Source: an uncultured Piscirickettsiaceae bacterium (GTDB taxonomy: Bacteria > Pseudomonadota > Gammaproteobacteria > GCF-002020875). From it: DNA of 64,000 bases. The stretch spans positions 851-64,850 of the forward strand of contig CAYFNH010000002.1 in assembly GCA_964344435.1 (NCBI GenBank), written 5' to 3'. The position numbers and the translations under genes are program-made. How positions within the stretch are numbered: position 1 is the stretch's first letter; the number at the start of each line of letters is the position of its first letter. A model generated the notes under the pieces. That model was not told where the DNA came from, ran no database searches, and saw nothing but the letters and a program-made list of their open reading frames with translations. Of this stretch, positions 6,285 to 60,841 are shown in pieces.

Positions 6285-7231
6285 TCAAGCTGGGCATGGT
6301 GATGGATCCGATCCAGGCAATCCATCCACAGAAGGACAGCAGCCTGGCTATGTTGCTGGAGGCGCAGCGACGTGGCTGGGCACTTCACTATATGGAGATG
6401 GATGACCTCTTTCTCTCTGATGGTGTGGTGCAGACCAACACCCACCCCCTGCAGGTCATCGATGACATCAACCACTGGTACACCCTGGGAGACCGGCAGA
6501 CCCTCGCCCTGAGTGAGCTGGATGTAATCCTGATGCGCAAGGATCCCCCGTTTGACCGCGAATACCTCTACGCCACCCATCTGCTGGAGCTGGCCGAGGT
6601 GGCCGGTGTGGTGGTGGTCAACAAGCCACAATCACTACGGGACTTCAACGAAAAGCTGGCCACCGCCTGGTTTCCCGACCTCACCCCCCCGATGCTGGTC
6701 ACCCGCAACCACCAGCAGATACGGGAGTTCCTCACCCAGCATGGGGAGATCATTCTCAAACCACTCGATGCCATGGGGGGCAGCTCGATCTTTCGCCTGC
6801 AGGCGGGTGACCCCAACAGTGGAGTTATCATCGAGACCCTGACCCAACACGGTGCCCACTACACCATGGTACAGCGCTACATTCCGGAAATCCGCGAGGG
6901 CGACAAACGCATTCTGCTGATTGATGGAGAGCCGGTACCCTATGCACTGGCCCGCATTCCGGCCGAGGGAGAACACCGTGGCAACCTCGCCGCCGGAGGA
7001 CATGGTGAGGGCCAGCCGCTCTCTCCTCGAGACTACGAAATCGTGGAGCAGGTCGCCCCCACCCTGCGGGAGAAGGGGCTACTCTTCGTCGGGCTGGATG
7101 TGATCGGTGACTACCTGACCGAGATCAACATCACCAGCCCCACCTGTATCCGTGAGCTGGACAAACAATTTGGACTCAATATCGCCGGGCAGTTGATGGA
7201 TGTGATTGAGGAAAAGCTTTGCAACGCGTAG
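6281..7231 (+). CDS. gshB: glutathione synthetase
   Basis: 316 aa; MIKLGMVMDPIQAIHPQKDSS...GDKRILLIDGEPVPYALARIP...GGHGEG matches GshB and its ATP-grasp motifs. Confidence 0.92.
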   Translation: MIKLGMVMDPIQAIHPQKDSSLAMLLEAQRRGWALHYMEMDDLFLSDGVVQTNTHPLQVIDDINHWYTLGDRQTLALSELDVILMRKDPPFDREYLYATHLLELAEVAGVVVVNKPQSLRDFNEKLATAWFPDLTPPMLVTRNHQQIREFLTQHGEIILKPLDAMGGSSIFRLQAGDPNSGVIIETLTQHGAHYTMVQRYIPEIREGDKRILLIDGEPVPYALARIPAEGEHRGNLAAGGHGEGQPLSPRDYEIVEQVAPTLREKGLLFVGLDVIGDYLTEINITSPTCIRELDKQFGLNIAGQLMDVIEEKLCNA

Positions 7232-7336
7232 ATGCAGAGATAATCGATAACAGGAATCCTTCATCGTTGCGTAATTATTTGCAGTTTCTACCCCCTCCCC
7301 AACCCTCCCCCTGCAAGGGGGAGGGAGCCTGGAGCA

Positions 7337-7368
7337 TCTTTGCGTCTTTGCGTCTTTGCGTCTTTGCG
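7337..7368. repeat. Perfect 4x tandem 8-bp repeat (TCTTTGCG)4
   Basis: Direct read: TCTTTGCGTCTTTGCGTCTTTGCGTCTTTGCG, just downstream of the gshB stop and a CCCTCCCCC-TGCAA-GGGGGAGGG hairpin. It overlaps the predicted signal-peptide coding start of apbE. Confidence 0.9.
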
Positions 7369-8376
7369 TTAAGCGCTTTTCTGTTAAGCAGTTGTAGTCA
7401 GCCTCCGAGACTGTACCAAGATCAGTTTCTCGCCTTCGGAACGGTGGTCTCTCTTTCCATCTGGGGAGCCCGCGATCAACAAAATGCCGAGGCCAGCCGC
7501 CTGATTCGGGAAGACTTTGCCGCAATGCACGACACCTGGCATGCCTGGAAGAAGGGGGGGCTGCTGGGGGAGATCAACCACAACATCGCCACCGGAAAGG
7601 CAACACAACTCTCTGCAGAGGCCGCCACCCTGCTGCAACGGACAGCGGAACTCTCCCGCCAGAGTAACCACCTCTTCAATCCGGCGATTGGCAAACTGAT
7701 CGCCCTGTGGGGCTTTCATGGCGAGCAGCGGAAGGGGCCACCGCCTACCCAGATGGAGATTGATGCGCTACTGCAGGCCGACCCGACCCTCGACAACCTC
7801 AATTTTGAATCCGGAACCGTCTCTGCCAGCAACCCTGAGGTGAAGATCGACCTCGGCGGCATCGCCAAGGGGTATGCCGTGGATCGTGCCATTGAGCAGC
7901 TCAAACAGCTTGGCATTAAAGATGCCATTGTCAACACCGGAGGGGATCTACGCGCCATTGGTGCCCGTGGTGAGCGCAAATGGAACATCGGCATCCGCTC
8001 TCCCGATGGTGGAGAGCCTGTCGCCTCACTACAGCCCCAGGGGGATGAGTCGATCTTCACCTCCGGTGACTATGAGCGGATGTTTGAATATAACGGGGAA
8101 CGCTACCACCACATCATCAACCCCCGCACCGGCTGGCCCGCGACAGGCACCCACTCGGTCACCGTCATTCATCCAAGTGCCACCGTGGCCGATGCCGCCG
8201 CTACCGCCCTGCTGATCGCCACACCAGAACAACGCTCGACCATTGCCCGGCAGATGGGAATCGAGCAGTTGCTGATTATCGATGCGGCCGGTGTATACCA
8301 TCTGACCGATGCTATGAAACAGCGGCTTACCCTGCTCCGGCCTCCCCCACAAATGGTACCAGTGGTGCTAAGATAA
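7348..8376 (+). CDS. apbE: FAD:protein FMN transferase (ApbE family lipoprotein)
   Basis: Body matches ApbE (…GGIAKGYAVDRA…, …GDLRAIG…). Track ORF 7219..8376 has no ATG near the N-terminus and reads through a hairpin and tandem repeat. An in-frame TTG at 7348 gives (M)RLCVFALSAFLLSSCSQ, a lipoprotein-like signal. Start is uncertain. Confidence 0.75.
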   Translation: MRLCVFALSAFLLSSCSQPPRLYQDQFLAFGTVVSLSIWGARDQQNAEASRLIREDFAAMHDTWHAWKKGGLLGEINHNIATGKATQLSAEAATLLQRTAELSRQSNHLFNPAIGKLIALWGFHGEQRKGPPPTQMEIDALLQADPTLDNLNFESGTVSASNPEVKIDLGGIAKGYAVDRAIEQLKQLGIKDAIVNTGGDLRAIGARGERKWNIGIRSPDGGEPVASLQPQGDESIFTSGDYERMFEYNGERYHHIINPRTGWPATGTHSVTVIHPSATVADAAATALLIATPEQRSTIARQMGIEQLLIIDAAGVYHLTDAMKQRLTLLRPPPQMVPVVLR

Positions 8377-8380
8377 CCTC

Positions 8381-8959
8381 ATGAGTCGCAAGATCCACCC
8401 CAAAGAGCACTATCTTGGCAACCACCTGCTGATTGCGATGCCCTCGCTCCAAGATAGCAACTTTGACCATACCGTTTCTCTGATCTGTGAACACAATGAG
8501 GAGGGTGCTATGGGCTTTGTCCTCAACCGCCCCACCTCTCTGCCAATTCATGACCTCTTCGACCATATGGATATCGCGGTCACGGTTCCACTCAGCTCAC
8601 AACAGATGCTGCATACCGGCGGACCGGTACAGCCCGAGCGCGGCTTTGTCATCCACTCCCCGGTGGGGGAGTGGGAGTCCACCCTGGAGTTGACCCCGGA
8701 GATCGGCATCACCGCCTCACGCGACATCCTCTTTGCCATTGCCAATGGCGACGGCCCGGAGAAACAGATCATCACCCTTGGCTATGCGGGCTGGGGGGCA
8801 GGCCAGCTCGAACGGGAATTTTCCGAAAACAGCTGGCTCAGCGTCGAAGCATCCGAAGAACTGATCTTTGATACCGACAACACCCTGCTCTGGCAACGCT
8901 CTGCCGACCAACTGGGCATCGACATCAACACCCTCACCACTCAGGCAGGGCATGCCTGA
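8381..8959 (+). CDS. yqgE: YqgE/AlgH family protein (UPF0301)
   Basis: 192 aa; NHLLIAMPSLQDSNFDHTVSLICEHNEEGAMGFVLNRP is the family signature. Confidence 0.85.
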   Translation: MSRKIHPKEHYLGNHLLIAMPSLQDSNFDHTVSLICEHNEEGAMGFVLNRPTSLPIHDLFDHMDIAVTVPLSSQQMLHTGGPVQPERGFVIHSPVGEWESTLELTPEIGITASRDILFAIANGDGPEKQIITLGYAGWGAGQLEREFSENSWLSVEASEELIFDTDNTLLWQRSADQLGIDINTLTTQAGHA

Positions 8960-13050: not shown

Positions 13051-13782
13051 TTGCGGAATCATCAAGTAAACCAGCGAATGCCCAACACCTCATCACTCAA
13101 CATCACCATCATAGAAGACGATGAGCCCCTGCGTAGGCTGATCGTCAACGCGCTACGGGCTCAGGGGCATCATGTGATTGGGTTGGAGGATGCGGAATCG
13201 ATCGATGATGAAGGCGGGTCTCAACTGATCGATCTGCTGATTACAGACCTCAACCTGCCGGGAGAGAGCGGGCTTTCGCTCGCACAACGTTTCCGCAATG
13301 CACAACCTGGCGCCGGTGTCATCATGATAACCGCGCTCGATCAAGTGGCCGACAAAGTCAGCGGCTATGAGCATGGTGCCGACATCTATCTGACCAAACC
13401 CATTGACCCTGCCGAACTACTTGCCGTGGTGAATACATTTGCCCGTCGCCACTATGACCTTCACGCCAACGATAACCAGGGAAGCCAATTCACCCTCTAC
13501 CCCGACCAGCTCAACCTGACAGGTCCAGCCGCTACCGTCTCCGTTACCCGGGACGAGGCACTGATTCTGACCAGTCTGGCGCGTGCACCCGGTCATATGC
13601 TGGAGTACTGGCAGCTACTGGAGCTGCTGACAATGGAAGATACCTCGCATTCCAAATCCGCCCTGGAGGTTCGCATTGTCCGTCTGCGTAAAAAGATCAC
13701 CGAAGCGGGTTATCCATTGCCCCCGATCAAGAGCATTCGCAGCAAAGGATACCAACTCGCACTCTCACTACGGATCGGATAG
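13051..13782 (+). CDS. OmpR-family response regulator (REC + winged-helix), paralog 1
   Basis: ITIIEDDEP...LLITDLNLPGESG...YLTKP receiver domain; C-terminal ALEVRIVRLRKKI...KGYQL winged helix. Likely start is the internal Met (MPNTSS, 13078). Confidence 0.85.
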   Translation: MRNHQVNQRMPNTSSLNITIIEDDEPLRRLIVNALRAQGHHVIGLEDAESIDDEGGSQLIDLLITDLNLPGESGLSLAQRFRNAQPGAGVIMITALDQVADKVSGYEHGADIYLTKPIDPAELLAVVNTFARRHYDLHANDNQGSQFTLYPDQLNLTGPAATVSVTRDEALILTSLARAPGHMLEYWQLLELLTMEDTSHSKSALEVRIVRLRKKITEAGYPLPPIKSIRSKGYQLALSLRIG

Positions 13783-13990
13783 TTCACTGCAGTAATGGCG
13801 GCAGAACAGTGCTGCTTTCTGTAGGTTATCGTAGGAGTCAGAAGGGGTAGGTAGGATTCGTCCCATCCATTGCCGTATGATCTTCATTATTGAAACCTCA
13901 AAGCAAACTATAAAGTACTGCATAAGTCCATTCATACCACAATTCCAGGTGCGCTCAGGCACATCCTTTATCGCTTGACCGCAGCCATCC

Positions 13991-14770
13991 ATGGCTGCAG
14001 ACAACCTGGAATCGCGGTATGAACGAACTTTCGAGAAGATTGATAACCACCCAACATTCGAGCACCTTATGGACTACTCACCACTCAACATTACCGTAGT
14101 TGAAGACATCGAACCACAGCGATCTCTGGTCATCTCGCTGCTACGCCAGGAAGGACACCGTGTAAATGGGTTTGACAGTGCCGAAGCGGCAGAGAGTCAG
14201 AGCGGGTCAACGCCAATCGATTTATTGATTACCGACCTCAAACTTCCCGGGGAGAGCGGTCTCTCACTGGCAAGCAGTTTTCGCTCAGCTCATCCCGATA
14301 TCGGTATTATCATGCTGACAGCACTGGATGCCCCCGACGACAAGGTCTCCGGCTATAGCCACGGCGCGGATGTCTATCTCACAAAACCGATCGACGCCAA
14401 GGAGTTGATTGCTGTTGTTGGTGCAATCTCACGTCGTCTCCAGACAGCTACGACAGTGCCCGGCCCCAACGACCCGCTCATTCTCAACCCACAATTGCTG
14501 ACCCTACAGGGAAGCAAAGAGACCATTACCATCTCACAAAACGATGCACATATTTTGTCCAGCCTTATACACGCACCCGAGCATTTGCTGAAAATGGAGG
14601 AGATCTATGAGCTACTTCAGATCGTACCCAGCGCCTTGGCAAAGTCGGCTCTGGAGGTACGCATTGTTCGCCTACGTAAAAAAATCCGTGCCGCTGGATA
14701 CCCGCTGCAAAGTATAAAAAAAATTCGATACACTGGGTATAAACTGTACACCCCGATAACAATTATCTGA
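13991..14770 (+). CDS. OmpR-family response regulator, paralog 2 (tandem duplicate)
   Basis: Same architecture and roughly 50% identity to the upstream regulator (ITVVEDIEP...LLITDLKLPGESG...ALEVRIVRLRKKI). Start possibly the internal Met (MDYSPL, ~14069). No cognate kinase is adjacent. Confidence 0.85.
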   Translation: MAADNLESRYERTFEKIDNHPTFEHLMDYSPLNITVVEDIEPQRSLVISLLRQEGHRVNGFDSAEAAESQSGSTPIDLLITDLKLPGESGLSLASSFRSAHPDIGIIMLTALDAPDDKVSGYSHGADVYLTKPIDAKELIAVVGAISRRLQTATTVPGPNDPLILNPQLLTLQGSKETITISQNDAHILSSLIHAPEHLLKMEEIYELLQIVPSALAKSALEVRIVRLRKKIRAAGYPLQSIKKIRYTGYKLYTPITII

Positions 14771-14959
14771 ATAATATAACTCGAAGATGTAGGCTTTGTA
14801 GGAATATAGAGACGATTTACCTACAGTAAAACAACAATAAATGGCGGCATTCAACAACACAGAAAAACAATAATGAGAAACATTATCAACAGCATGAAAA
14901 CATTGGCCTTTCCAGTTTGACAACTGAGAAAAATCATTTAGCATAGGGCAACTGGGGTT

Positions 14960-14992
14960 CTTTTTCTTTTTCTTTTTCTTTTTCTTTTTCTT
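14960..14992. repeat. (CTTTTT)5 hexanucleotide microsatellite ~85 bp upstream of the Mms6-like gene
   Basis: Direct read: CTTTTTCTTTTTCTTTTTCTTTTTCTTTTTCTTC. It also creates a spurious poly-Lys ORF on the minus strand. Confidence 0.9.
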
Positions 14993-15076
14993 CAAAAGAG
15001 AGAAACAGGCCCACTGGAAAAAGTAAAACATGGAAAGTTGATAAATCAACAAAACTATTAAAAGAGGATAGAAATC

Positions 15077-16036
15077 ATGCAACAAGCATTGGCAGGGCAG
15101 GCAGCAACCGCAAATACAGGAGCTGCCAAAATTGGGGCAACCAAGGCGGCTACCGCAAAAGCTGCAGCAGTCAAGGGAGCTGCAGTAAAGGGGGCCACAT
15201 TGGGTACTGGGGTGGATCTGGCAACCTCTGCAACTGTCGGCAAGGATGTTGTTATCGGTAACGGTGCTGAAGTGATGGCCAAGGCCAAGATCAGCAGCGG
15301 TGCGGTAATCGGCTCTGACGCCACCATCCAGCAGGGAGCCGTCATTGGCAAAGGGGCTGTGATTGGACAGGATGCCACCATTACCAAGGGAGCCGTTGTC
15401 AAAAGTGGTGCCGTTATCAAGGATGGCGCTACCATCAAGGCTGCACCCGCAGCAAAAGTGGGGACTGCAAAGGTTGCTCCAATGGCAAAAACCGGAACGG
15501 CCGCTGCCAAGGCTGGCGCCACCGCAAAGGCTGCACCTGCTGCTGCCGCCGCTGCCGCTCCCCGTGGGGTAGAGATTGAAGGGCTGCGCAATGGTGCCAT
15601 GGCTGCAAAAACCGGGACTGCTAAAGCGGGCGCTGCCAAGACCGCTCCAGCTGCAATGGGTATGGGTACTCTCCCACCAGGTGTTGAAGTCGAAGGGCTA
15701 CGCAATGGCGCCATGGCTGCGAAGGCAGGAGCCGCCAAAACGGCGACAGGTAGTGCCAAGGCCGTTCAGGCCGCTGCGGTGACCTCTACGGCACCAGCCG
15801 CCAGCACCTCTTCCACCGCTGCCGCAACCGGTAAGACCGCTGCTGCCACCATCTGGAATGGCAAGGGCTGGAGCCTCGGTTTAGGGCTGGGCCTGGGTGC
15901 CTGGGGCACCGCTGCCGTAGGCCTGTTGGGTGCATCGGCCGCCTACGGTTACTACCGTCACCGCAAGAGCCTGCAAGAGGAAGCAGCGACCAGCGATAAA
16001 AATGTCGTGACTGAAGCTGCAAGCGACAAAGAGTAA
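15077..16036 (+). CDS. Mms6/MamG/MamD-like LG-repeat membrane protein (magnetosome biomineralisation-protein-like)
   Basis: 319 aa; AGAGGA RBS 8 nt upstream of the ATG. N-terminal Ala/Lys/Thr/Gly-rich low-complexity region (AKAGAAKTAPAA repeats) plus hexapeptide-like repeats (GAVIGxDATIxx). C-terminus reads TIWNGKGWSLGLGLGLGAWG + TM helix + AYGYYRHRK + acidic tail (SLQEEAATSDKNVVTEAASDKE). This follows the Mms6 C-terminal organisation (TIWTGKG-(LG)n-AWGP-TM-YAYMKSRD-acidic tail) as I remember it. Confidence 0.6.
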   Translation: MQQALAGQAATANTGAAKIGATKAATAKAAAVKGAAVKGATLGTGVDLATSATVGKDVVIGNGAEVMAKAKISSGAVIGSDATIQQGAVIGKGAVIGQDATITKGAVVKSGAVIKDGATIKAAPAAKVGTAKVAPMAKTGTAAAKAGATAKAAPAAAAAAAPRGVEIEGLRNGAMAAKTGTAKAGAAKTAPAAMGMGTLPPGVEVEGLRNGAMAAKAGAAKTATGSAKAVQAAAVTSTAPAASTSSTAAATGKTAAATIWNGKGWSLGLGLGLGAWGTAAVGLLGASAAYGYYRHRKSLQEEAATSDKNVVTEAASDKE

Positions 16037-16039
16037 ACA

Positions 16040-16366
16040 ATGGCCGCAGAAGTGATTGTGATGGACAGCCACTGGGGGCCACGCCTTCGTGCTGCCCTGA
16101 GTTACCTTGGCCCAGCGGTCTTTGTGCCACTATTCCTCTATCGCAATGACAAGTTTGTCTACTTCCATGCCCGTCAGGGGCTGGTACTCTGGGTAATCTC
16201 TGTACTCGCCATTGCCTCTCTGTTTCTGCCAGGATCAGGCAAGTTTCTGTTTGTGGTGTTGATGGGTATCTACCTGGCAGCCTCGGCAGTGGGGGTTCTC
16301 TCCTCCCTGTTAGGGGCCACCTGGGAGATTCCGGCTATCGGCAAACTTGCTCGCCGCTATTTTTAA
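16040..16366 (+). CDS. DUF4870-family 3-TM protein (MamF/MmsF-like)
   Basis: 108 aa. ALSYLGPAVFVPLFLYRNDKFVYFHARQGLVLW...GATWEIPAIGKLARRYF matches the DUF4870 signature (D/E-KF-V-R/Y-FHA-x-Q; C-terminal G-E-x-F-K-L-P-I-I-G) shared by magnetosome MamF/MmsF. It starts 4 nt after the Mms6-like gene, mirroring mms6-mmsF order. Confidence 0.6.
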   Translation: MAAEVIVMDSHWGPRLRAALSYLGPAVFVPLFLYRNDKFVYFHARQGLVLWVISVLAIASLFLPGSGKFLFVVLMGIYLAASAVGVLSSLLGATWEIPAIGKLARRYF

Positions 16367-16401: not shown

Positions 16402-18213
16402 CTACCTTGAGTGCTGCTCCAGGTAGCTATTGATCTCCCGTAAAAAAGGCTCGCTGTACTTTTCCAGCTTCTTCTCCCCCACCCCGTTAATCTCCAGAAA
16501 ATCGGCACGCGTGGTTGGTTGGTGGATCGCCATCTGAGTCAGGGCCGCATCTCCAAACACCATAAATGGTGCAATCCCCTCCTCCTCGGCCAGCTCGCGA
16601 CGCAACCCCCGCAGCAGCTCAAACAGCAATTCGTCCCGCCCTTCGACTGCTACCGTCTCACTACGTTTACGCTGCCGCTTTCCGCTCTCTTTCAGACGTG
16701 GCTTCGCCAACTCCAGCGACCGCTCCCCTTTCAATAACGGACGTGCCAGGGCCGTCAACTGCAGTACCGAATAGTTGGCAATATCCTGCGTCAGATAACC
16801 ACGATGGATCAGCTGCCGCAGCAGGCTGGACCATTCTGCATCACTGCGCTCCTTGCCGATACCGTAGGTACTGAGCTGGTTATGGCGGAGGTTACGGATA
16901 CGCTCGTTGTCCATCCCCCGCAATACATCAATCACGTGACGCATACCAAAACGCTGCCCCACCCGATAGACACAAGAGAGCGCCTTCTGCGCATCCTCGG
17001 TCGCATCATAGCACTCGGGTGGATCGGAACAGAGGTCACAGTTGCCACAGTCTTCGGACAGCTCTTCACCAAAATAGTGCAGCAGCACCCGCCTGCGGCA
17101 GGTAAGCGCCTCGGCAAAGGCAACCATGCTGTTGAGTTTGTGGATCTCGATCCGTTTCTGTGCCTCATTATCACTGTTCTCCACCAGACGCCGTGCCATC
17201 ACCACATCCTGTGCGCCAAATAGCAGCAGCGCCTCGGCCGGTAGACCATCACGCCCGGCACGCCCAGTCTCCTGATAATACCCCTCGATATTCTTCGGCA
17301 GATCGTAGTGAACCACAAAGCGTACATCAGGCTTGTCGATGCCCATACCAAAGGCGACCGTAGCCACCACCACATCGACCTCGTCGCGCATGAACTGTTC
17401 ATGAACCTGCTCGCGCACTACGGCAGGCAGACCGGCATGGTAGGCAGCCGCGTTATAGCCGGCCAGACGCAACTTCTCCGCCAACTCCTCCACCCGCTTG
17501 CGACTGAGTGCGTATACAATGCCGCGCTCTCCGCTGAAACGGCCAAGAAAATGTTTGAGCTGATCAAACGGCTTGCGCTTCTCCAGCGCCCCGTAACGGA
17601 TATTGGGGCGATCAAAACCGGTAACATGGATACTGGGCTGGCGTAACTGCAGCCGCTGGACAATATCCCTGCGGGTCTGTGGATCGGCTGTGGCGGTCAG
17701 TGCCACCATCGGTGTATCGCTGAAACGCTCACGCAGAGCGCCCAGTTGTACATACTCGGGACGGAAATCGTGCCCCCACTGCGAAACACAGTGCGCCTCA
17801 TCCACTGCAAACAGTCCGATTTCGACCTCTTCCAGCCGTTGTAAAAAGCTCTCGGACATCAACCGTTCCGGAGCCACATAGAGCAGATCGAGGTTACCGG
17901 AATGGAGTCGGGCCAGGGTTTGTTGAGCCTCTTGCGCCTGCACCGAAGAGTTGTAACAGGCGGCATCGACCCCGTTGGCCTGCAACGCATCCACCTGATC
18001 CTTCATCAAGGAGATCAGCGGCGAAACCACGATGGTGGTTCCACCACGTAGCAACGCAGGCAACTGATAGCAGAGTGACTTACCGCCACCGGTCGGCATC
18101 AGCACAAAGGTGTCACGACCCGCCACCACATCCTCGATGATCTCCTGCTGGTGGGGACGAAAACTGCTGTAACCGAAGACACTCTGCAGTGTCTCCTGGG
18201 GGGAAGAGTACAT
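16402..18213 (-). CDS. recQ: ATP-dependent DNA helicase RecQ
   Basis: DEAH box (FAVDEAHCVSQWGHDFRPEY), RecQ Zn-finger cysteines, HRDC region. Start chosen at MYSSPQETLQSVFGYSSFRP, inside track ORF 16402..18318. Confidence 0.9.
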   Translation of the reverse strand: MYSSPQETLQSVFGYSSFRPHQQEIIEDVVAGRDTFVLMPTGGGKSLCYQLPALLRGGTTIVVSPLISLMKDQVDALQANGVDAACYNSSVQAQEAQQTLARLHSGNLDLLYVAPERLMSESFLQRLEEVEIGLFAVDEAHCVSQWGHDFRPEYVQLGALRERFSDTPMVALTATADPQTRRDIVQRLQLRQPSIHVTGFDRPNIRYGALEKRKPFDQLKHFLGRFSGERGIVYALSRKRVEELAEKLRLAGYNAAAYHAGLPAVVREQVHEQFMRDEVDVVVATVAFGMGIDKPDVRFVVHYDLPKNIEGYYQETGRAGRDGLPAEALLLFGAQDVVMARRLVENSDNEAQKRIEIHKLNSMVAFAEALTCRRRVLLHYFGEELSEDCGNCDLCSDPPECYDATEDAQKALSCVYRVGQRFGMRHVIDVLRGMDNERIRNLRHNQLSTYGIGKERSDAEWSSLLRQLIHRGYLTQDIANYSVLQLTALARPLLKGERSLELAKPRLKESGKRQRKRSETVAVEGRDELLFELLRGLRRELAEEEGIAPFMVFGDAALTQMAIHQPTTRADFLEINGVGEKKLEKYSEPFLREINSYLEQHSR

Positions 18214-24962: not shown

Positions 24963-25444
24963 GCGCATTGTGGACGGCACTGAACGACTGGTTCAGTGCC
25001 AATGAGACGCTACTGTTCTGGGTTGGAGTGGGCTCGTCCGCAATGCTGGTTGGCTCCATTCTGGCCCTGCCCTGGCTGGTAGGGCAGATCCCGGAAAACT
25101 ACTTCCGCCACCCACAGGAGCCGGTTGCCCCTGCCCTGCAGGAGCATCCCCTGCTGCGCCTGCTGCTCCACCTGCTGAGAAATGTGGTCGGAGGTATCCT
25201 GATTATCGCCGGATTCCTGATGCTGTTCCTGCCGGGACAGGGATTATTGACCCTGCTACTGGGGATCATGCTCTGCCATTTTCCCGGCAAATACCGTCTG
25301 GAGCAGTGGTTCATCCGCCAACCCGGTATACTTGGCGCTTTAAACTGGTTTCGTGAAAGGGGTAACCACCCCCCACTGAGCCTTGCACCCAACGAAGATA
25401 ACCATGAACAATCACGAATCAACCGCTCCTCTGGAAGGTGCTGA
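24959..25444 (+). CDS. small membrane protein (PGPGW-like motif)
   Basis: 161 aa, 2-3 TM helices, LFLPGQGLL motif. Confidence 0.45.
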
Positions 25445-25832
25445 CCCAGAAAAAGCGGATGTCCGCCTGGCACTCTGGGCGGCCTCCCTCTATCTCATCA
25501 ACCTGCTGCTGCTACCGGGCATCGGTTACCTGCTGCTTGGCTGGCTCTACTTTCGCAACCGTGAGCGTGATGACCGACCGCTCGGTAACATCCACCTGCG
25601 CGAGGCCTTTACCGCCTCCACGGTTGGCGGAGGGCTGATTTTCGCCACCCTGCTCTTCTTCTGGATCGGTGGCTTCGATGTCTCCAGCAGCTGGGTCTAT
25701 GCCATCATCTACTTTACCCTGATCCACTCCAGCTTTATTCTGCTGGGGGTATTGGCACTGGCTCGCGCCTTTGCCGCAGAACCTTTCTACTATCCCCTTA
25801 TCGGCAAACACCGCGCACGGCTGTTTGATTGA
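25383..25832 (+). CDS. hypothetical polytopic membrane protein
   Basis: ~140 aa with 4 predicted TM helices. Start uncertain; overlaps the upstream gene. Confidence 0.4.
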   Translation: MHPTKITMNNHESTAPLEGADPEKADVRLALWAASLYLINLLLLPGIGYLLLGWLYFRNRERDDRPLGNIHLREAFTASTVGGGLIFATLLFFWIGGFDVSSSWVYAIIYFTLIHSSFILLGVLALARAFAAEPFYYPLIGKHRARLFD

Positions 25833-55018: not shown

Positions 55019-55159
55019 AGGCTGGCTATTATCCCCTCAGTTGAGAGAACTTCAAACGGGGCTGCACCACTCATTCTGGAAAGGCCGGAAATTGGTCTCC
55101 TGCAGAAAAGTCCCGTTTGACTTGGTAAAACAATCTCTATATGATCCGCCTCCTGTTTT

Positions 55160-55400
55160 GGGTTCTCTGCTCAATATCCATTGAACAGGGTGAAAAGGGA
55201 AGTCTGGTGCGCTCAACCACAGCAACTCCAGCGCTGCCCCCGCAACGGTAGGTGAGGATAATCGGATCACACGCCACTGCATCGATGATGTGGGAAGGCG
55301 ATTCGAACGGTACACAGAGACCACTCACAAGCCCGGAGACCTGCCCGAGACAATACGTAGGCCAAATCGCGGCGGGCGATAGCCGGGCAACGCTACTGCT
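55160..55400 (+). promoter_or_regulatory. cobalamin (AdoCbl) riboswitch in the btuB leader
   Basis: Conserved GGTGAAAAGGGAA...GGTGCG...CTGCCCCCGCAACGGTA core, B12 box ACGCCACTG, and downstream GGGAAGGCG. It sits ~100-300 nt upstream of the btuB ATG (55478). Confidence 0.8.
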
Positions 55401-57352: not shown

Positions 57353-58276
57353 ATGGTTAACTATTTTCCTTCCAAGCAAAGCCATTTCGCCTTTCATACG
57401 CGTGCCCTCTATCTGTTTATCACGCTCTCCGTCCTGATCCATGGGTTCATACTATACAACTGGAAAGAGCCTCTCCAATTCGACTTCGGGGGGCAACAAC
57501 TCAATCAGCAGACCCTACAAATTGCGCTGCGTACACCTACCCCCAGACATGTCGAAGTTGAACCTGCTGAGAAACCGGTAGAGCAGGCTGTTGAGCCTCC
57601 GCCCCCCCCTGTGGAAGAGGTGGCAGTCAAACAGGAACAGTCGGTAGAGGTCATTGAAGAGCCACCCCCGCAACCTGAACCTAAACCTGATCCTGATCCT
57701 GAGCCTGAGCCTGAGTCTGAGCCTGAGCCTGAGCCTCAAGTCATTCAACAACCCTCTCCTCCTGCACCCAAACCAAAAAAACAGCACGTTCCCTTTCAAC
57801 AGAAGAAGGCAGTAAAACCGGTTACAACCAAGCCGGTTAAATCAGTCGCAGCTGAAAAGGTGATTGATCCGACTCCGGTCAAACCAGTAACAGATCCCAA
57901 ACCTGCCCCCAAATCAGCTCCTGAAGAAAAGACTGCAGAAGAGCCCGAAACCAAGCTCAACGAGAGCGAAGCCACCCAACAATCCATCGCCATGATCCGC
58001 CGTCTGATTCAAGGTGAGCTCGGGCGGCACTTTCAATACCCCAGGGTGGCACGCCGTCGTGGATGGGAGGGGAAGGTACAGCTTGAATTTACCGTACTAC
58101 CGGATGGAGCAATCACCAACATCCGCATCATGCAGGGCAGCCAGTATAAAATACTGGATCGTTCTGCCGTGAATACCATGACCCGTATCCACCACCTCAA
58201 GCAGATCTCCGAGGGGATGCTGCGTGCCCCTGTGCGCATGGAGATCCCGATCATCTATCAACTCAGCAACCGTTAA
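57353..58276 (+). CDS. tonB: energy transducer TonB
   Basis: N-terminal TM anchor, Pro/Glu-rich spacer with (EP)n and (PK) repeats, conserved C-terminal TonB domain. Confidence 0.85.
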   Translation: MVNYFPSKQSHFAFHTRALYLFITLSVLIHGFILYNWKEPLQFDFGGQQLNQQTLQIALRTPTPRHVEVEPAEKPVEQAVEPPPPPVEEVAVKQEQSVEVIEEPPPQPEPKPDPDPEPEPESEPEPEPQVIQQPSPPAPKPKKQHVPFQQKKAVKPVTTKPVKSVAAEKVIDPTPVKPVTDPKPAPKSAPEEKTAEEPETKLNESEATQQSIAMIRRLIQGELGRHFQYPRVARRRGWEGKVQLEFTVLPDGAITNIRIMQGSQYKILDRSAVNTMTRIHHLKQISEGMLRAPVRMEIPIIYQLSNR

Positions 58277-58938: not shown

Positions 58939-59712
58939 ATGAGTAACAAACAACCTGTAATTCTGATCGGTGCCGGTGAGATGGGCGGTGTATTCGCCCG
59001 TGGACTGCTGCGTGCCGGTTATCCCGTCCATCCGGTCACCCGCAAGATCTCGCTGGAGGAGACCGCCAACACGATTCCCGATCCGGAGTTTGTACTGGTG
59101 AGTGTAGCCGAAGGGGATCTCCACCCAGTACTGGAGCAGATTCCGGCTGCATGGCGTGACCGTCTGGTACTGCTGCAAAATGAGCTTCTGCCCCGCGACT
59201 GGAAGCAGCATGGCCTCGACAACCCCACCGTGATCTCGGTCTGGTTTGAGAAGAAAAAGGGGATGGACTTCAAGGTGATCATCCCCTCTCCAGTGCTTGG
59301 CCCACACGCCCAGACCATTGCTGATGCACTCGCCACCCTGGAGATCAGCAGCAAGGTGCTGACCACCGATAGCGAACTGCTGCTGGAGCTGGTGCTGAAG
59401 AATGTCTACATCCTCACCACCAACATTGCCGGGCTCAAGGTGGGCGGCACGGTGGGTGAACTCTGGGAGAATCATGAAGAGTTTGCTCGTACGGTAGCCA
59501 ACGAGGTGATCGATCTGCAAGAGTGGCTGACTGGTGAGAAGCTGGATCGCGAGGCGCTGATCAACGGTATGGTGAGCGCTTTCAACGGGGATCCAAACCA
59601 TGGCTGCATGGGACGTAGTGCCCCGGCAAGGCTACAACGGGCGCTACAACAGGCCGCTGAGGCTGGGCTCTCACTGCCCACACTGGAACAGATCCGCGCG
59701 CTCAATGAGTGA
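58939..59712 (+). CDS. NAD(P)-binding Rossmann-fold protein (ketopantoate-reductase/ApbA N-terminal-like)
   Basis: VILIGAGEMGGVFARGLLRAGYPV dinucleotide-binding motif; 257 aa. Confidence 0.45.
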   Translation: MSNKQPVILIGAGEMGGVFARGLLRAGYPVHPVTRKISLEETANTIPDPEFVLVSVAEGDLHPVLEQIPAAWRDRLVLLQNELLPRDWKQHGLDNPTVISVWFEKKKGMDFKVIIPSPVLGPHAQTIADALATLEISSKVLTTDSELLLELVLKNVYILTTNIAGLKVGGTVGELWENHEEFARTVANEVIDLQEWLTGEKLDREALINGMVSAFNGDPNHGCMGRSAPARLQRALQQAAEAGLSLPTLEQIRALNE

Positions 59713-60841
59713 GCTGAACCACGCCGCAGAGGCCCGTCACGCCACCCTCATCGGGGCATTGATCAATCTGCTGCTGAGTGGATTGAAAATCGTGGTCGGC
59801 ACCGTGGGGAACTCTCACTCACTGGTTGCCGATGGGGTGCACTCCCTCTCTGATCTGATCTCTGACGTGATGGTGCTCTACGGAACCCACCATGGCAACC
59901 AGGAGGCTGATGAAGCACACCCGTATGGCCATGGACGCATCGAGACCTTGATCACAGTTGCTGTCGGCCTGTTACTGATCGCCATCGCCATCGGCATTGC
60001 ACTGAATGCGATTGACCACCTCTTTAATCCACAAACCCTGTCACAGCCCGGGAGCATGGTTCTAATCGCGGCGGCACTCTCCATTCTGTTCAAGGAGGGG
60101 CTCTACCACTACACCATGAGAGTGGCCACGCGCATCCGCTCCAAACTGCTACGCGCCAATGCCTGGCACCATCGCACCGATGCGCTCTCTTCCGTGGTGG
60201 TACTGATTGGCGTCAGCGGTACCCTGGCCGGCCTGGAATATCTGGATGCCATCGCCGCTGTGCTGGTGGCGGTGATGATTGCCCATGCCGGATTCGAACT
60301 GGGGTGGGAGTCGATTCAGGAGCTGATCGATACCGGACTGGAGCAGGAGCAACTGGAGCAGGTACGAGTGCAGATCCATCATGTGGAAGGGGTACGGGCC
60401 ATGCACCGGCTGCGTACCCGCCGCATGGGGGCGAATGTACTGGTCGATGTCCATATTCTGGTCGACCCCCGTCTCAGTGTCTCTGAAGGTCACAAAATTG
60501 CTGACCATGTAGAGATGACACTCTATCAGGAGATCAGGGATGTCACTGATGTTACCGTTCATATCGACCCGGAAAACGATGAACAAAATCACCCCTGTAC
60601 CGACCTGCCGATGCGCAGTGAACTGATTGAACGGCTCACTACCTGCTGGGCCGACATCCCGGAGAGCCGCTATATTGAAGACTACACCCTCCACTATCTC
60701 GATGGGGAGCTGGATCTGGAGGTGTGGATACCACTATCCAAAATGGATTCGCTTTCCGAGGCTACTTCACTACAGCAGCGCATGAGCCACTGCCTCTCCG
60801 ACGACCTGCAGATCAAACGGGTACGCCCACTCTTCTTCTGA
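59705..60841 (+). CDS. cation diffusion facilitator (CDF) family transporter with extended C-terminal domain
   Basis: 6-TM CDF core with HSLxxD...HxxxD metal sites (HSLSDLISD, HRTDAL), plus a ~90-aa extra C-terminal segment. ATG 59705 inside track ORF 59600..60841. Confidence 0.8.
   Translation: MSELNHAAEARHATLIGALINLLLSGLKIVVGTVGNSHSLVADGVHSLSDLISDVMVLYGTHHGNQEADEAHPYGHGRIETLITVAVGLLLIAIAIGIALNAIDHLFNPQTLSQPGSMVLIAAALSILFKEGLYHYTMRVATRIRSKLLRANAWHHRTDALSSVVVLIGVSGTLAGLEYLDAIAAVLVAVMIAHAGFELGWESIQELIDTGLEQEQLEQVRVQIHHVEGVRAMHRLRTRRMGANVLVDVHILVDPRLSVSEGHKIADHVEMTLYQEIRDVTDVTVHIDPENDEQNHPCTDLPMRSELIERLTTCWADIPESRYIEDYTLHYLDGELDLEVWIPLSKMDSLSEATSLQQRMSHCLSDDLQIKRVRPLFF

Follow-up and report, generated by a model that had tools for sequence, protein, structure and literature searches.

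A probable satellite magnetosome operon encoding a beta-helix-headed Mms6-type protein in an uncultured marine gammaproteobacterium

This study concerns a pair of adjacent plus-strand genes in a 64,000-nt stretch of DNA from an uncultured Piscirickettsiaceae bacterium (assembly GCA_964344435.1, contig CAYFNH010000002.1, positions 851 to 64,850), which is referred to below as the window. The first gene (15077-16036) encodes a 319-aa protein of the Mms6/MamD/MamG family with a clade-specific N-terminal domain, and the second (16040-16366) encodes a 108-aa membrane protein of the MamF/MmsF family with three long helices. The comparisons presented here indicate that the pair most probably forms a satellite magnetosome operon whose host, a marine gammaproteobacterium not yet cultured, is magnetotactic and related to Candidatus Thiopontia (GTDB family GCF-002020875). 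The initial annotation of the window had noticed the resemblance to mms6-mmsF and had offered two explanations, either a satellite magnetosome locus of a magnetotactic proteobacterium or a use of an Mms6-like/DUF4870 module unconnected with magnetosomes. The former is borne out by a mamAB cluster that the same metagenome-assembled genome (MAG) carries on a different contig and by two related MAGs with the same arrangement, and we regard the question as settled: the pair appears to belong to the magnetosome machinery, whose components have not been put to a new use here.

Both open reading frames (ORFs) start with ATG and were found at the positions and with the C-terminal sequence initially annotated. 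The 319-aa product ends in ...TIWNGKGWSLGLGLGLGAWGTAAVGLLGASAAYGYYRHRKSLQEEAATSDKNVVTEAASDKE, and the 108-aa gene begins only 3 nt after the TAA stop codon of its neighbour, because of which the two genes are probably translationally coupled. An AGAGGA ribosome-binding site precedes the first ATG of the pair. The two genes are placed between the pyr-cluster gene for the electron-transfer subunit of dihydroorotate dehydrogenase and recQ, which lies on the opposite strand, is convergent with the pair and ends at 16402.

The relation of the 319-aa protein to magnetosome proteins is carried by its C-terminal part. Residues 258-292 (15848-15952, plus strand) comprise TIWNGKGWS-(LG)4-AWG and a weakly hydrophobic helix extending to AYGY, and they are followed by a juxtamembrane YRHRK and the acidic tail SLQEEAATSDKNVVTEAASDKE (15953-16033, plus strand). 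The WS-(LG)4-AWG element occupies residues 265-277 and AlphaFold2 placed a helix at 280-304 behind it, so that both a Gly-Leu repeat and a hydrophobic segment are present. When compared by BLASTP with P0002, a true Mms6, the protein was 54% identical over 63 residues spanning TIW, the LG repeat, the helix and the tail. G270 and G272 were invariant across 99 members of the LG family, and the alignment columns from G262 to G277 as well as Y290 were invariant or nearly so. Magnetospirillum Mms6 has been described as consisting of an N-terminal domain (NTD), a GL repeat, a transmembrane (TM) segment and an acidic magnetite-interacting component (MIC) (PMC11332177). Judged by the alignment, residues 258-292 would correspond to the GL-repeat and TM modules, and the acidic tail, with 6 Asp/Glu and 2 Lys among its last 22 residues, would be the counterpart of the MIC. 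The tails of the orthologues were all acidic, and their length and sequence varied.

In searches against the NCBIfam models, the C-terminal part of the 319-aa protein scored 47.1 bits for MamD (NF040916, E 1.8e-12), 41.5 bits for Mms6 (NF040917, E 1.6e-10; residues 171-311 only) and 32.1 bits for MamG (NF040985, E 1e-7), and in each case only the LG/TM portion of the model was aligned. The curated equivalog cut-offs of these models are 100, 200 and 100 bits, respectively, and they were exceeded by the controls P0002 (230.6 bits against Mms6), P0006 and P0008 (206.9 and 196.2 bits against MamD). A word-index search returned nine homologues, among them the Mms6 protein P0002 and the MamD proteins P0006 and P0008; all nine carry Pfam domain PF28196, and the precomputed domain record listed no PF28196 match for the window protein itself. 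The whole-length word-index query was swamped by low-complexity words and therefore residues 160-319 were used for the exhaustive search. In the HMMER scan of 1.84 billion representative proteins this region had 95 relatives at E <= 1e-3, and every sequence that was read proved to be an LG-repeat protein. The model scores, the LG-repeat homologues, the alignment with P0002 and the shared motifs together place the 319-aa protein, by sequence, in the Mms6/MamD/MamG superfamily, with a layout closest to that of Mms6 and as an equivalog of none of the three. The Mms6 signature that had been claimed for it therefore holds as homology to the LG-repeat family and not as strict Mms6 orthology, the Mms6 score being far under its cut-off and about the same as that for MamD.

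These scores also bear on the possibility that the 319-aa protein is MamD-like, that is, a negative regulator of magnetosome membrane growth which is proteolytically released and does not regulate crystal faces. MamD gave the best NCBIfam match, the length of 319 aa is close to the 318 positions of the MamD model, and conditional localisation is common to MamD and Mms6 (PMC11332177). However, the difference between the MamD and Mms6 scores is negligible, only positions 208-310 of the MamD model were aligned and the MamD N-terminal domain is absent, whereas the ExEG motifs and the order of the LG gene and mmsF resemble Mms6. Although an Mms6-like role and a MamD-like role in restraining membrane growth are inseparable by sequence alone, we consider the MamD-like function unlikely.

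The second product of the putative satellite operon is a member of the MamF/MmsF family by sequence, in agreement with the initial assignment. Its match to Pfam PF09685 (MamF_MmsF/DUF4870) was below the cut-off (13.6 bits, E 0.071; cut-off 25) and is marked as 'weak' in the precomputed record. Since NCBIfam contained no model matching any MamF/MmsF protein, the cluster-borne MamF included, we built a custom profile, for which only 74 non-gammaproteobacterial MamF/MmsF sequences, each encoded within 10 kb of mam genes, were used. With this profile the 108-aa protein scored 100.0 bits (E 3.9e-27) and the cluster-borne MamF of the genome 127.8 bits. AlphaFold2 with a 13-sequence alignment predicted three helices (residues 12-33, 38-60 and 67-91) at a mean predicted local distance difference test (pLDDT) score of 80, and the hydrophobic span of the protein covers residues 44-93. 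Homologues were found at 69-80% identity, and one of them, P0019 (72% identical), is encoded inside a magnetosome gene cluster together with MamC, MamT-like, MamS/X-like, MamB, MamQ and MamO-like proteins. When 185,579 GTDB species genomes were scanned with two conserved peptides of the 108-aa protein, 65 loci were detected, nearly all of them in lineages of magnetotactic bacteria (Magnetococcales, magnetotactic Rhodospirillales, Nitrospirota, SAR324, Nitrospinota and similar). In 49 of the 65 loci mam genes lay at most 10 kb away, and in many a protein with LGLGLG was encoded directly upstream on the same strand. The order of an LG-repeat gene followed by a mamF/mmsF-like gene, which the initial annotation had likened to mms6-mmsF, is a widespread magnetosome motif, present in many genomes of magnetotactic bacteria.

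At the level of metagenome-assembled genomes the host is magnetotactic, as judged by its gene content. Contig CCWXVF010000031.1 (contig 31) of MAG GCA_973355605.1 encodes a protein identical to the 319-aa product, which was also found in runs ERR2281799-806. In the same MAG and run series, a MamB orthologue (P0118), 88% identical to the MamB of a related cluster, is encoded on the 71-kb contig CCWXVF010000015.1 (contig 15). When this contig was read over positions 1261-22205, it was found to carry a mamAB cluster coding for MamM, MamO, MamA, MamQ, a helix-turn-helix (HTH) protein, MamB, MamS, MamT, an LG-like protein, MamF, MamH, MamI, MamE, an unassigned protein and MamK. MamB (461 bits, cut-off 350), MamM (441, 350), MamQ (262, 250), MamK (495, 400), MamH (620, 300) and MamI (86, 80) were above the curated cut-offs, and MamO, MamE, MamA, MamS and MamT were best matches but remained under the cut-off. 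In tetranucleotide composition the window correlated with the mamAB contig at 0.967, its two halves correlated with each other at 0.966, and for other magnetotactic MAGs, apparently from the same study (isolate labels ERP019367), the value was 0.48-0.60. In addition, GCA_018671205.1 (SI037_bin54) has the satellite pair on contig L018 and a mamAB cluster on L016, and GCA_964416755.1 has them on L014 and L082, respectively. GCA_018671205.1 is a species representative in the GTDB genus Thiopontia (PMC10463829), and a survey of related Saanich Inlet MAGs, probably of the same group, reported mam genes only (PMC7449369). Our literature search found no paper linking Thiopontia with magnetosomes.

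Relatives of the satellite pair also occur in the magnetosome clusters themselves. The mamAB cluster of the same MAG contains a paralogous pair (L078, 12253-13505), in which the gene for a 239-aa LG-like protein, with three GVE[VM]EG[LM]RN motifs and with GVLGLGIGIW as a degenerate LG repeat, precedes that for a 107-aa MamF sharing 47% identity with the satellite MmsF-like protein. A third set was found in related genomes (L015 and L016), where genes for MmsF and for a short protein with a left-handed beta-helix (LbH) domain and an LG repeat stand at the flank of the magnetosome cluster. In the SI037_bin54 cluster the LbH-LG gene (L016, 7459-8040; identical in L011, 9297-9878) is interrupted in frame by a stop codon exactly where LGVWGP has its conserved Trp; past this codon the frame runs through a normal helix and acidic tail. 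The stop is present in two independent assemblies. It could reflect a pseudogene of recent origin, a read-through site or an error common to both.

A non-magnetosome use of the Mms6-like/DUF4870 module in a bacterium that is not magnetotactic would be in accordance with the absence of mam genes from the window, with the location of the pair in conserved housekeeping synteny, and with the clade-specific LbH domain, response regulators and microsatellite described below, which known mms6 operons do not have. However, full mamAB clusters are present in the same MAG and in two related MAGs, the window and the mamAB contig are alike in tetranucleotide composition, paralogous LbH-LG and MmsF genes lie in or beside the magnetosome cluster of related genomes (L016, L015), and virtually every homologue detected, of either protein, is from a magnetotactic lineage. 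This explanation, which the initial annotation had kept as its second alternative, is largely refuted and we consider it very improbable.

Both genes of the proposed satellite magnetosome operon are well conserved at one chromosomal site. In at least seven species the pair was found flanked by the dihydroorotate-dehydrogenase subunit gene and recQ, and in L009, L013, L014, L017 and L018 synteny extends from the former through the response-regulator genes, where there are any, the pair, recQ (opposite strand), yggS, thiD and thiE to hemL. In L084, the most abundant variant of the collection (198 blocks), the pair and the convergent recQ are kept and the downstream genes differ. Both ORFs were intact in all eight species examined (the window, L009, L013, L014, L015, L017, L018 and L084), in seven of them at the recQ-adjacent site, and the start codon, the AGAGGA ribosome-binding site and the 3-nt spacing were all kept among orthologues. 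In comparisons of five to eight orthologues, the ratio of nonsynonymous to synonymous substitution rates (dN/dS) was 0.055-0.124 for the Mms6-like gene (five orthologues) and 0.067-0.184 for the MmsF-like gene; in both, synonymous sites had reached saturation. The low dN/dS values and the shared site therefore indicate, at the level of sequence, that both genes are functional, under purifying selection and have long been inherited vertically next to recQ. Against this background a decaying, non-functional relic of a former magnetosome island, left behind after rearrangement, is very improbable, even though the pair is detached from the mamAB cluster and the in-frame stop in the SI037_bin54 copy demonstrates that members of the family can decay.

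The N-terminal part of the 319-aa protein, which had been taken initially for Ala/Lys/Thr/Gly low complexity only, contains a predicted folded domain. Residues ~37-125 (15185-15451, plus strand) consist of 14 regular hexads of the type xxGAxI and matched Pfam Hexapep (PF00132) with 48.1 bits (E 7.3e-13; gathering score 27). AlphaFold2, run on the single sequence, predicted a strand every 6 residues in this LbH domain (pLDDT 83-93), a disordered linker and the C-terminal helix mentioned above. A Foldseek search of the PDB with the domain retrieved only LbH proteins, including LpxD (0.7 A over 74 columns), gamma-carbonic anhydrases and sugar N-acetyltransferases. There is no histidine in residues 37-125, which excludes both a zinc site like that of gamma-carbonic anhydrases and the catalytic His found in acyltransferases; moreover, all matches of the 319-aa protein to NCBIfam enzyme models were far under the cut-off. 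We infer that the domain probably serves as a non-enzymatic scaffold. LbH domains in solved structures are generally trimeric. Among the 99 representatives of the LG family only the window protein and P0028 have an LbH domain, and the matches obtained by phmmer with the LbH region as query were limited to the gammaproteobacterial loci L009-L018 and P0028, so the LbH head is, as far as sequences go, restricted to a related gammaproteobacterial clade. Four family representatives, the MamD-type P0008 among them, have a FlgD_tudor-like match in its place. The Ala/Lys/Thr-rich linker, which is predicted to be disordered, carries two copies of GVE[IV]EGLRNGAMAAK (residues 164-173 and 202-211; 15566-15709, plus strand). 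The number of copies differs among orthologues (one in L018, two in the window, three in L013 and L084, none in L015), and a related motif, GEMEREG, occurs twice in the N-terminal domain of the true Mms6 P0002. A literature search combining magnetosome with hexapeptide and Mms6 yielded nothing relevant on a link to LbH domains.

Upstream of the pair lie two genes for response regulators of the OmpR/PhoB family, each plus-stranded. The first regulator, RR1 (13051-13782), has a receiver and a winged-helix DNA-binding domain (Pfam Response_reg, E 1.7e-21; Trans_reg_C, E 6.6e-11) and a 74% identical orthologue in L014, and RR2 (13991-14770) is its paralogue (Response_reg, E 9.2e-22; Trans_reg_C, E 5.1e-8); no sensor kinase gene adjoins them. 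The operon has both regulator genes ahead of it in the window and in L014; L017 encodes at least one, at its start, and L018 none. Operators of OmpR-family regulators are usually direct repeats spaced about one helical turn apart. A pattern scan of the window revealed a single exact match to TGTAGG-N3/4-TGTAGG, where 0.00 were expected: this candidate operator, TGTAGGCTTTGTAGG (14788-14802, plus strand), is located 18 nt past the RR2 stop codon and 275 nt ahead of the ATG of the mms6-like gene. Between RR1 and RR2 there is a further candidate regulator-binding site, TGTAGGTTATCGTAGG (13820-13835, plus strand), which differs by one mismatch from TGTAGG-N4-TGTAGG. Among the 83 loci, exact TGTAGG direct repeats were detected only in L001, L002, L014 (two sites, 7757-7772 and 8538-8553) and L017 (352-367), all of which bear regulator genes and have the repeats at equivalent positions; the site at 7757-7772 of L014 occupies the place of the imperfect repeat of the window. 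This pattern suggests that RR1 and RR2 may control both the operon and RR2 itself via the candidate TGTAGG repeats.

The leader of the operon contains a sigma-70-like promoter match, TTGACA-16-TAGCAT (14917-14944, plus strand), which is a match to the consensus only, at 10 of 12 positions; similar -35/-10-like hexamers were recognised by eye just upstream of the microsatellite in L014 and L017. This microsatellite, a perfect hexanucleotide repeat (CTTTTT)5 at 14958-14992 (plus strand; Tandem Repeats Finder (TRF) unit TTCTTT, 5.8 copies), is the sole perfect intergenic repeat with a short unit (period <=8) in the window. The run of exact units ends at 14989, 88 nt before the ATG, and 14992 is the TRF boundary. 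There are five units in the window and in the ENA contig L002 and four in the NCBI MAG contig L001 (9890-9913); four Logan contigs end inside the repeat and several assemblies break there. Elsewhere we observed CTTTTT at least 19 times in L014 (8729-8942), eight times in L017 (516-571) and five times in L084 (362-391), and GTATT about 15 times in L018 (~130 nt upstream of 1151) and at least 11 times in L013 (1-55). Thus, in six species a perfect microsatellite is found 85-130 nt upstream of the mms6-like start, with the unit CTTTTT in four and GTATT in two, and L009 has only a remnant of it. No such microsatellites were found in the mamAB contigs L078 and L011, and the repeat is specific to the satellite operon.

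A position that is kept, a unit that differs between species and a length that varies within species could be what is expected of a tuning or contingency element. Carried further, this idea would turn the satellite operon into a tunable contingency module, in which the microsatellite and the OmpR-type pair acting on TGTAGG repeats set the dose of an LbH-headed, probably trimeric Mms6-type protein; we regard this as rather unlikely. If it were true, heritable variation in crystal size and shape, from cell to cell or at the population level, would be expected in these bacteria of oxygen-minimum zones. The magnetosome papers and literature searches consulted here revealed no variation mediated by repeats and no two-component regulator specific to magnetosome genes, although no search was targeted at either.

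Tight association with magnetite crystals and processing of the precursor to a C-terminal peptide of ~6 kDa are the functional hallmarks of Mms6. In Magnetospirillum, MmsF is constitutively present at magnetosomes, the GL region of Mms6 is needed for membrane localisation, and its NTD keeps the protein cytosolic until biomineralisation conditions are reached and may be cleaved off (PMC11332177). By analogy, the MmsF-like protein of the satellite operon would be a constitutive magnetosome membrane protein that promotes crystal maturation, and the Mms6-like protein would be recruited to the membrane via its GL repeat and hydrophobic helix, with the acidic C-terminal tail acting on the growing magnetite crystal to tune its size and shape. 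The LbH-bearing N-terminal domain may take the part of the Mms6 NTD and leave the protein soluble or mis-localised until biomineralisation starts; perhaps it also oligomerises the protein, and possibly it is removed by MamE-type proteolysis. The enlarged N-terminal domain would then govern solubility, oligomeric state and timing. Transcription would proceed from the sigma-70-like promoter, the two adjacent OmpR-type regulators would act through the TGTAGG direct repeats, and the hypervariable U-rich microsatellite in the leader might modulate the output of the operon. The localisation, crystal interaction, trimerisation, proteolytic processing and regulation of the pair are thus predicted from analogy.

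Several observations weigh against the satellite magnetosome operon or against parts of the mechanism sketched for it. The 319-aa protein stayed under all three equivalog cut-offs (Mms6 41.5/200, MamD 47.1/100, MamG 32.1/100 bits), its hydrophobic segment is weak (Kyte-Doolittle maximum 1.47), and its tail is only moderately acidic and has not kept the DEEVE-type iron-binding motif of Mms6 (SDEEVELRDALA in P0002). The basic YRHRK after the helix would, according to the positive-inside rule, leave the tail in the cytoplasm; the topology of Mms6 itself is still debated (PMC11332177). It is MAG binning that joins the satellite contig to the mamAB contig, though it does so in three independent MAGs. 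As to regulation, the roles of the promoter, operator and microsatellite are sequence patterns only, and a fold of the leader RNA in which the (CUUUUU)n tract would hide the ribosome-binding site was no better than in shuffled sequences (z 0.24).

In comparison with known systems, the window operon resembles the Magnetospirillum mms6 operon in having an LG-repeat gene followed by an MmsF-type three-helix gene, but it lies far from mamAB in housekeeping synteny and is preceded by the microsatellite and two response-regulator genes. Its first product shares with Mms6 the succession of TIWxGKG-(LG)n-AWG, hydrophobic helix, Y-x-Y with basic residues and acidic tail, as well as an ExEG-type motif in the N-terminal domain and an Ala/Lys/Thr-rich, probably disordered pre-sequence, whereas its N-terminal domain comprises ~257 residues with a folded LbH, in contrast to ~98 in Mms6, the DEEVE motif is not kept and the score against the Mms6 equivalog model is below the cut-off. 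The LG-repeat/TM C-terminal module and the MamF/MmsF paralogue as a partner are also common to MamD and MamG with MamF (mamGFDC) and to 'Mms6-L' of magnetotactic Pseudomonadota (PMC9840458); unlike MamD, the window protein has no MamD-type N-terminal domain. The LbH domain is like those of LpxA/LpxD, of the PglD/PerB acetyltransferases and of gamma-carbonic anhydrases in its hexad periodicity and predicted fold, but it contains no His, has no flanking catalytic or nucleotide-binding domain and is fused to a biomineralisation module.

The core finding, that accessory genes are present outside the main cluster, is not categorically new. Clusters of the mms6 type in Pseudomonadota can be 'scattered outside the MGCs' (magnetosome gene clusters) (PMC9840458), and accessory magnetosome genes off the main cluster are already known, for example in the magnetosome islet of M. 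magneticum AMB-1 (PMC11332177, PMC9840458). As in these cases, the window has accessory biomineralisation genes away from mamAB in ordinary chromosomal surroundings; it differs from them in the fixed position of these genes, inherited vertically across at least seven species, and in a module of two genes only. What appears to be new is the LbH-headed architecture of an Mms6-type protein, the fixed satellite site in a Thiopontia-related clade, and the combination of a microsatellite with OmpR-type regulators and a TGTAGG candidate operator. Accessory biomineralisation genes are thereby added to what is known of the widespread, uncultured magnetotactic Gammaproteobacteria of marine low-oxygen waters. 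The LbH head would represent a new architecture in a family that is used as a template for biomimetic magnetite synthesis and bears on the question of the role of the Mms6 N-terminal domain, and the conserved microsatellite and regulator/operator pair provide testable leads on the regulation of accessory magnetosome genes, a topic that is almost unexplored.

The remaining genes of the window are of the housekeeping kind, as the initial annotation had described, with no mam gene of the mamAB type or other within the 64 kb. They include metK, ahcY, metF, gshAB, apbE, ruvX and pyrRBC, the gene for the dihydroorotate-dehydrogenase electron-transfer subunit, recQ, yggS, thiDE, hemL, metH and a B12 uptake cluster. 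A minus-strand ORF antisense to the mms6-like gene (15058-15759; 233 aa, Ala/Pro-rich) is most likely a shadow of the GC-rich, Ala-rich frame, and no Rfam families were found near the pair. The only cation diffusion facilitator (CDF) transporter of the window (59600-60841) had MamM (211 bits) and MamB (202 bits) as its top NCBIfam equivalog matches, against a cut-off of 350 bits for each; since its identity to the real MamB and MamM of the genome is only 31-34%, it was rejected as a magnetosome gene and is, by sequence, a generic FieF-like exporter. A second small membrane protein (25383-25832), encoded upstream of an S49/NfeD-like peptidase gene, has an orthologue in L009 (8010-8429) with a weak precomputed match to PF09685. 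This DUF4870-like ORF was undetected by the custom MamF/MmsF profile, and we rejected it as a magnetosome gene in favour of a generic DUF4870-type protein unrelated to the pair.

Two ordinary riboswitches were present, one for S-adenosylhomocysteine (SAH) upstream of ahcY (666-747) and one for cobalamin upstream of the TonB-dependent receptor gene in the B12 uptake cluster (55143-55362). Within the 5' part of the apbE ORF (7219-8376) there is a perfect 8-nt tandem repeat (TCTTTGCG, 4.1 copies, 7337-7369), in which an altered number of units would shift the reading frame. Pro-Glu-rich spacers are typical of TonB proteins, and such a spacer is encoded by 10.5 copies of CCTGAG (57674-57736) within a TonB-like gene of the window.

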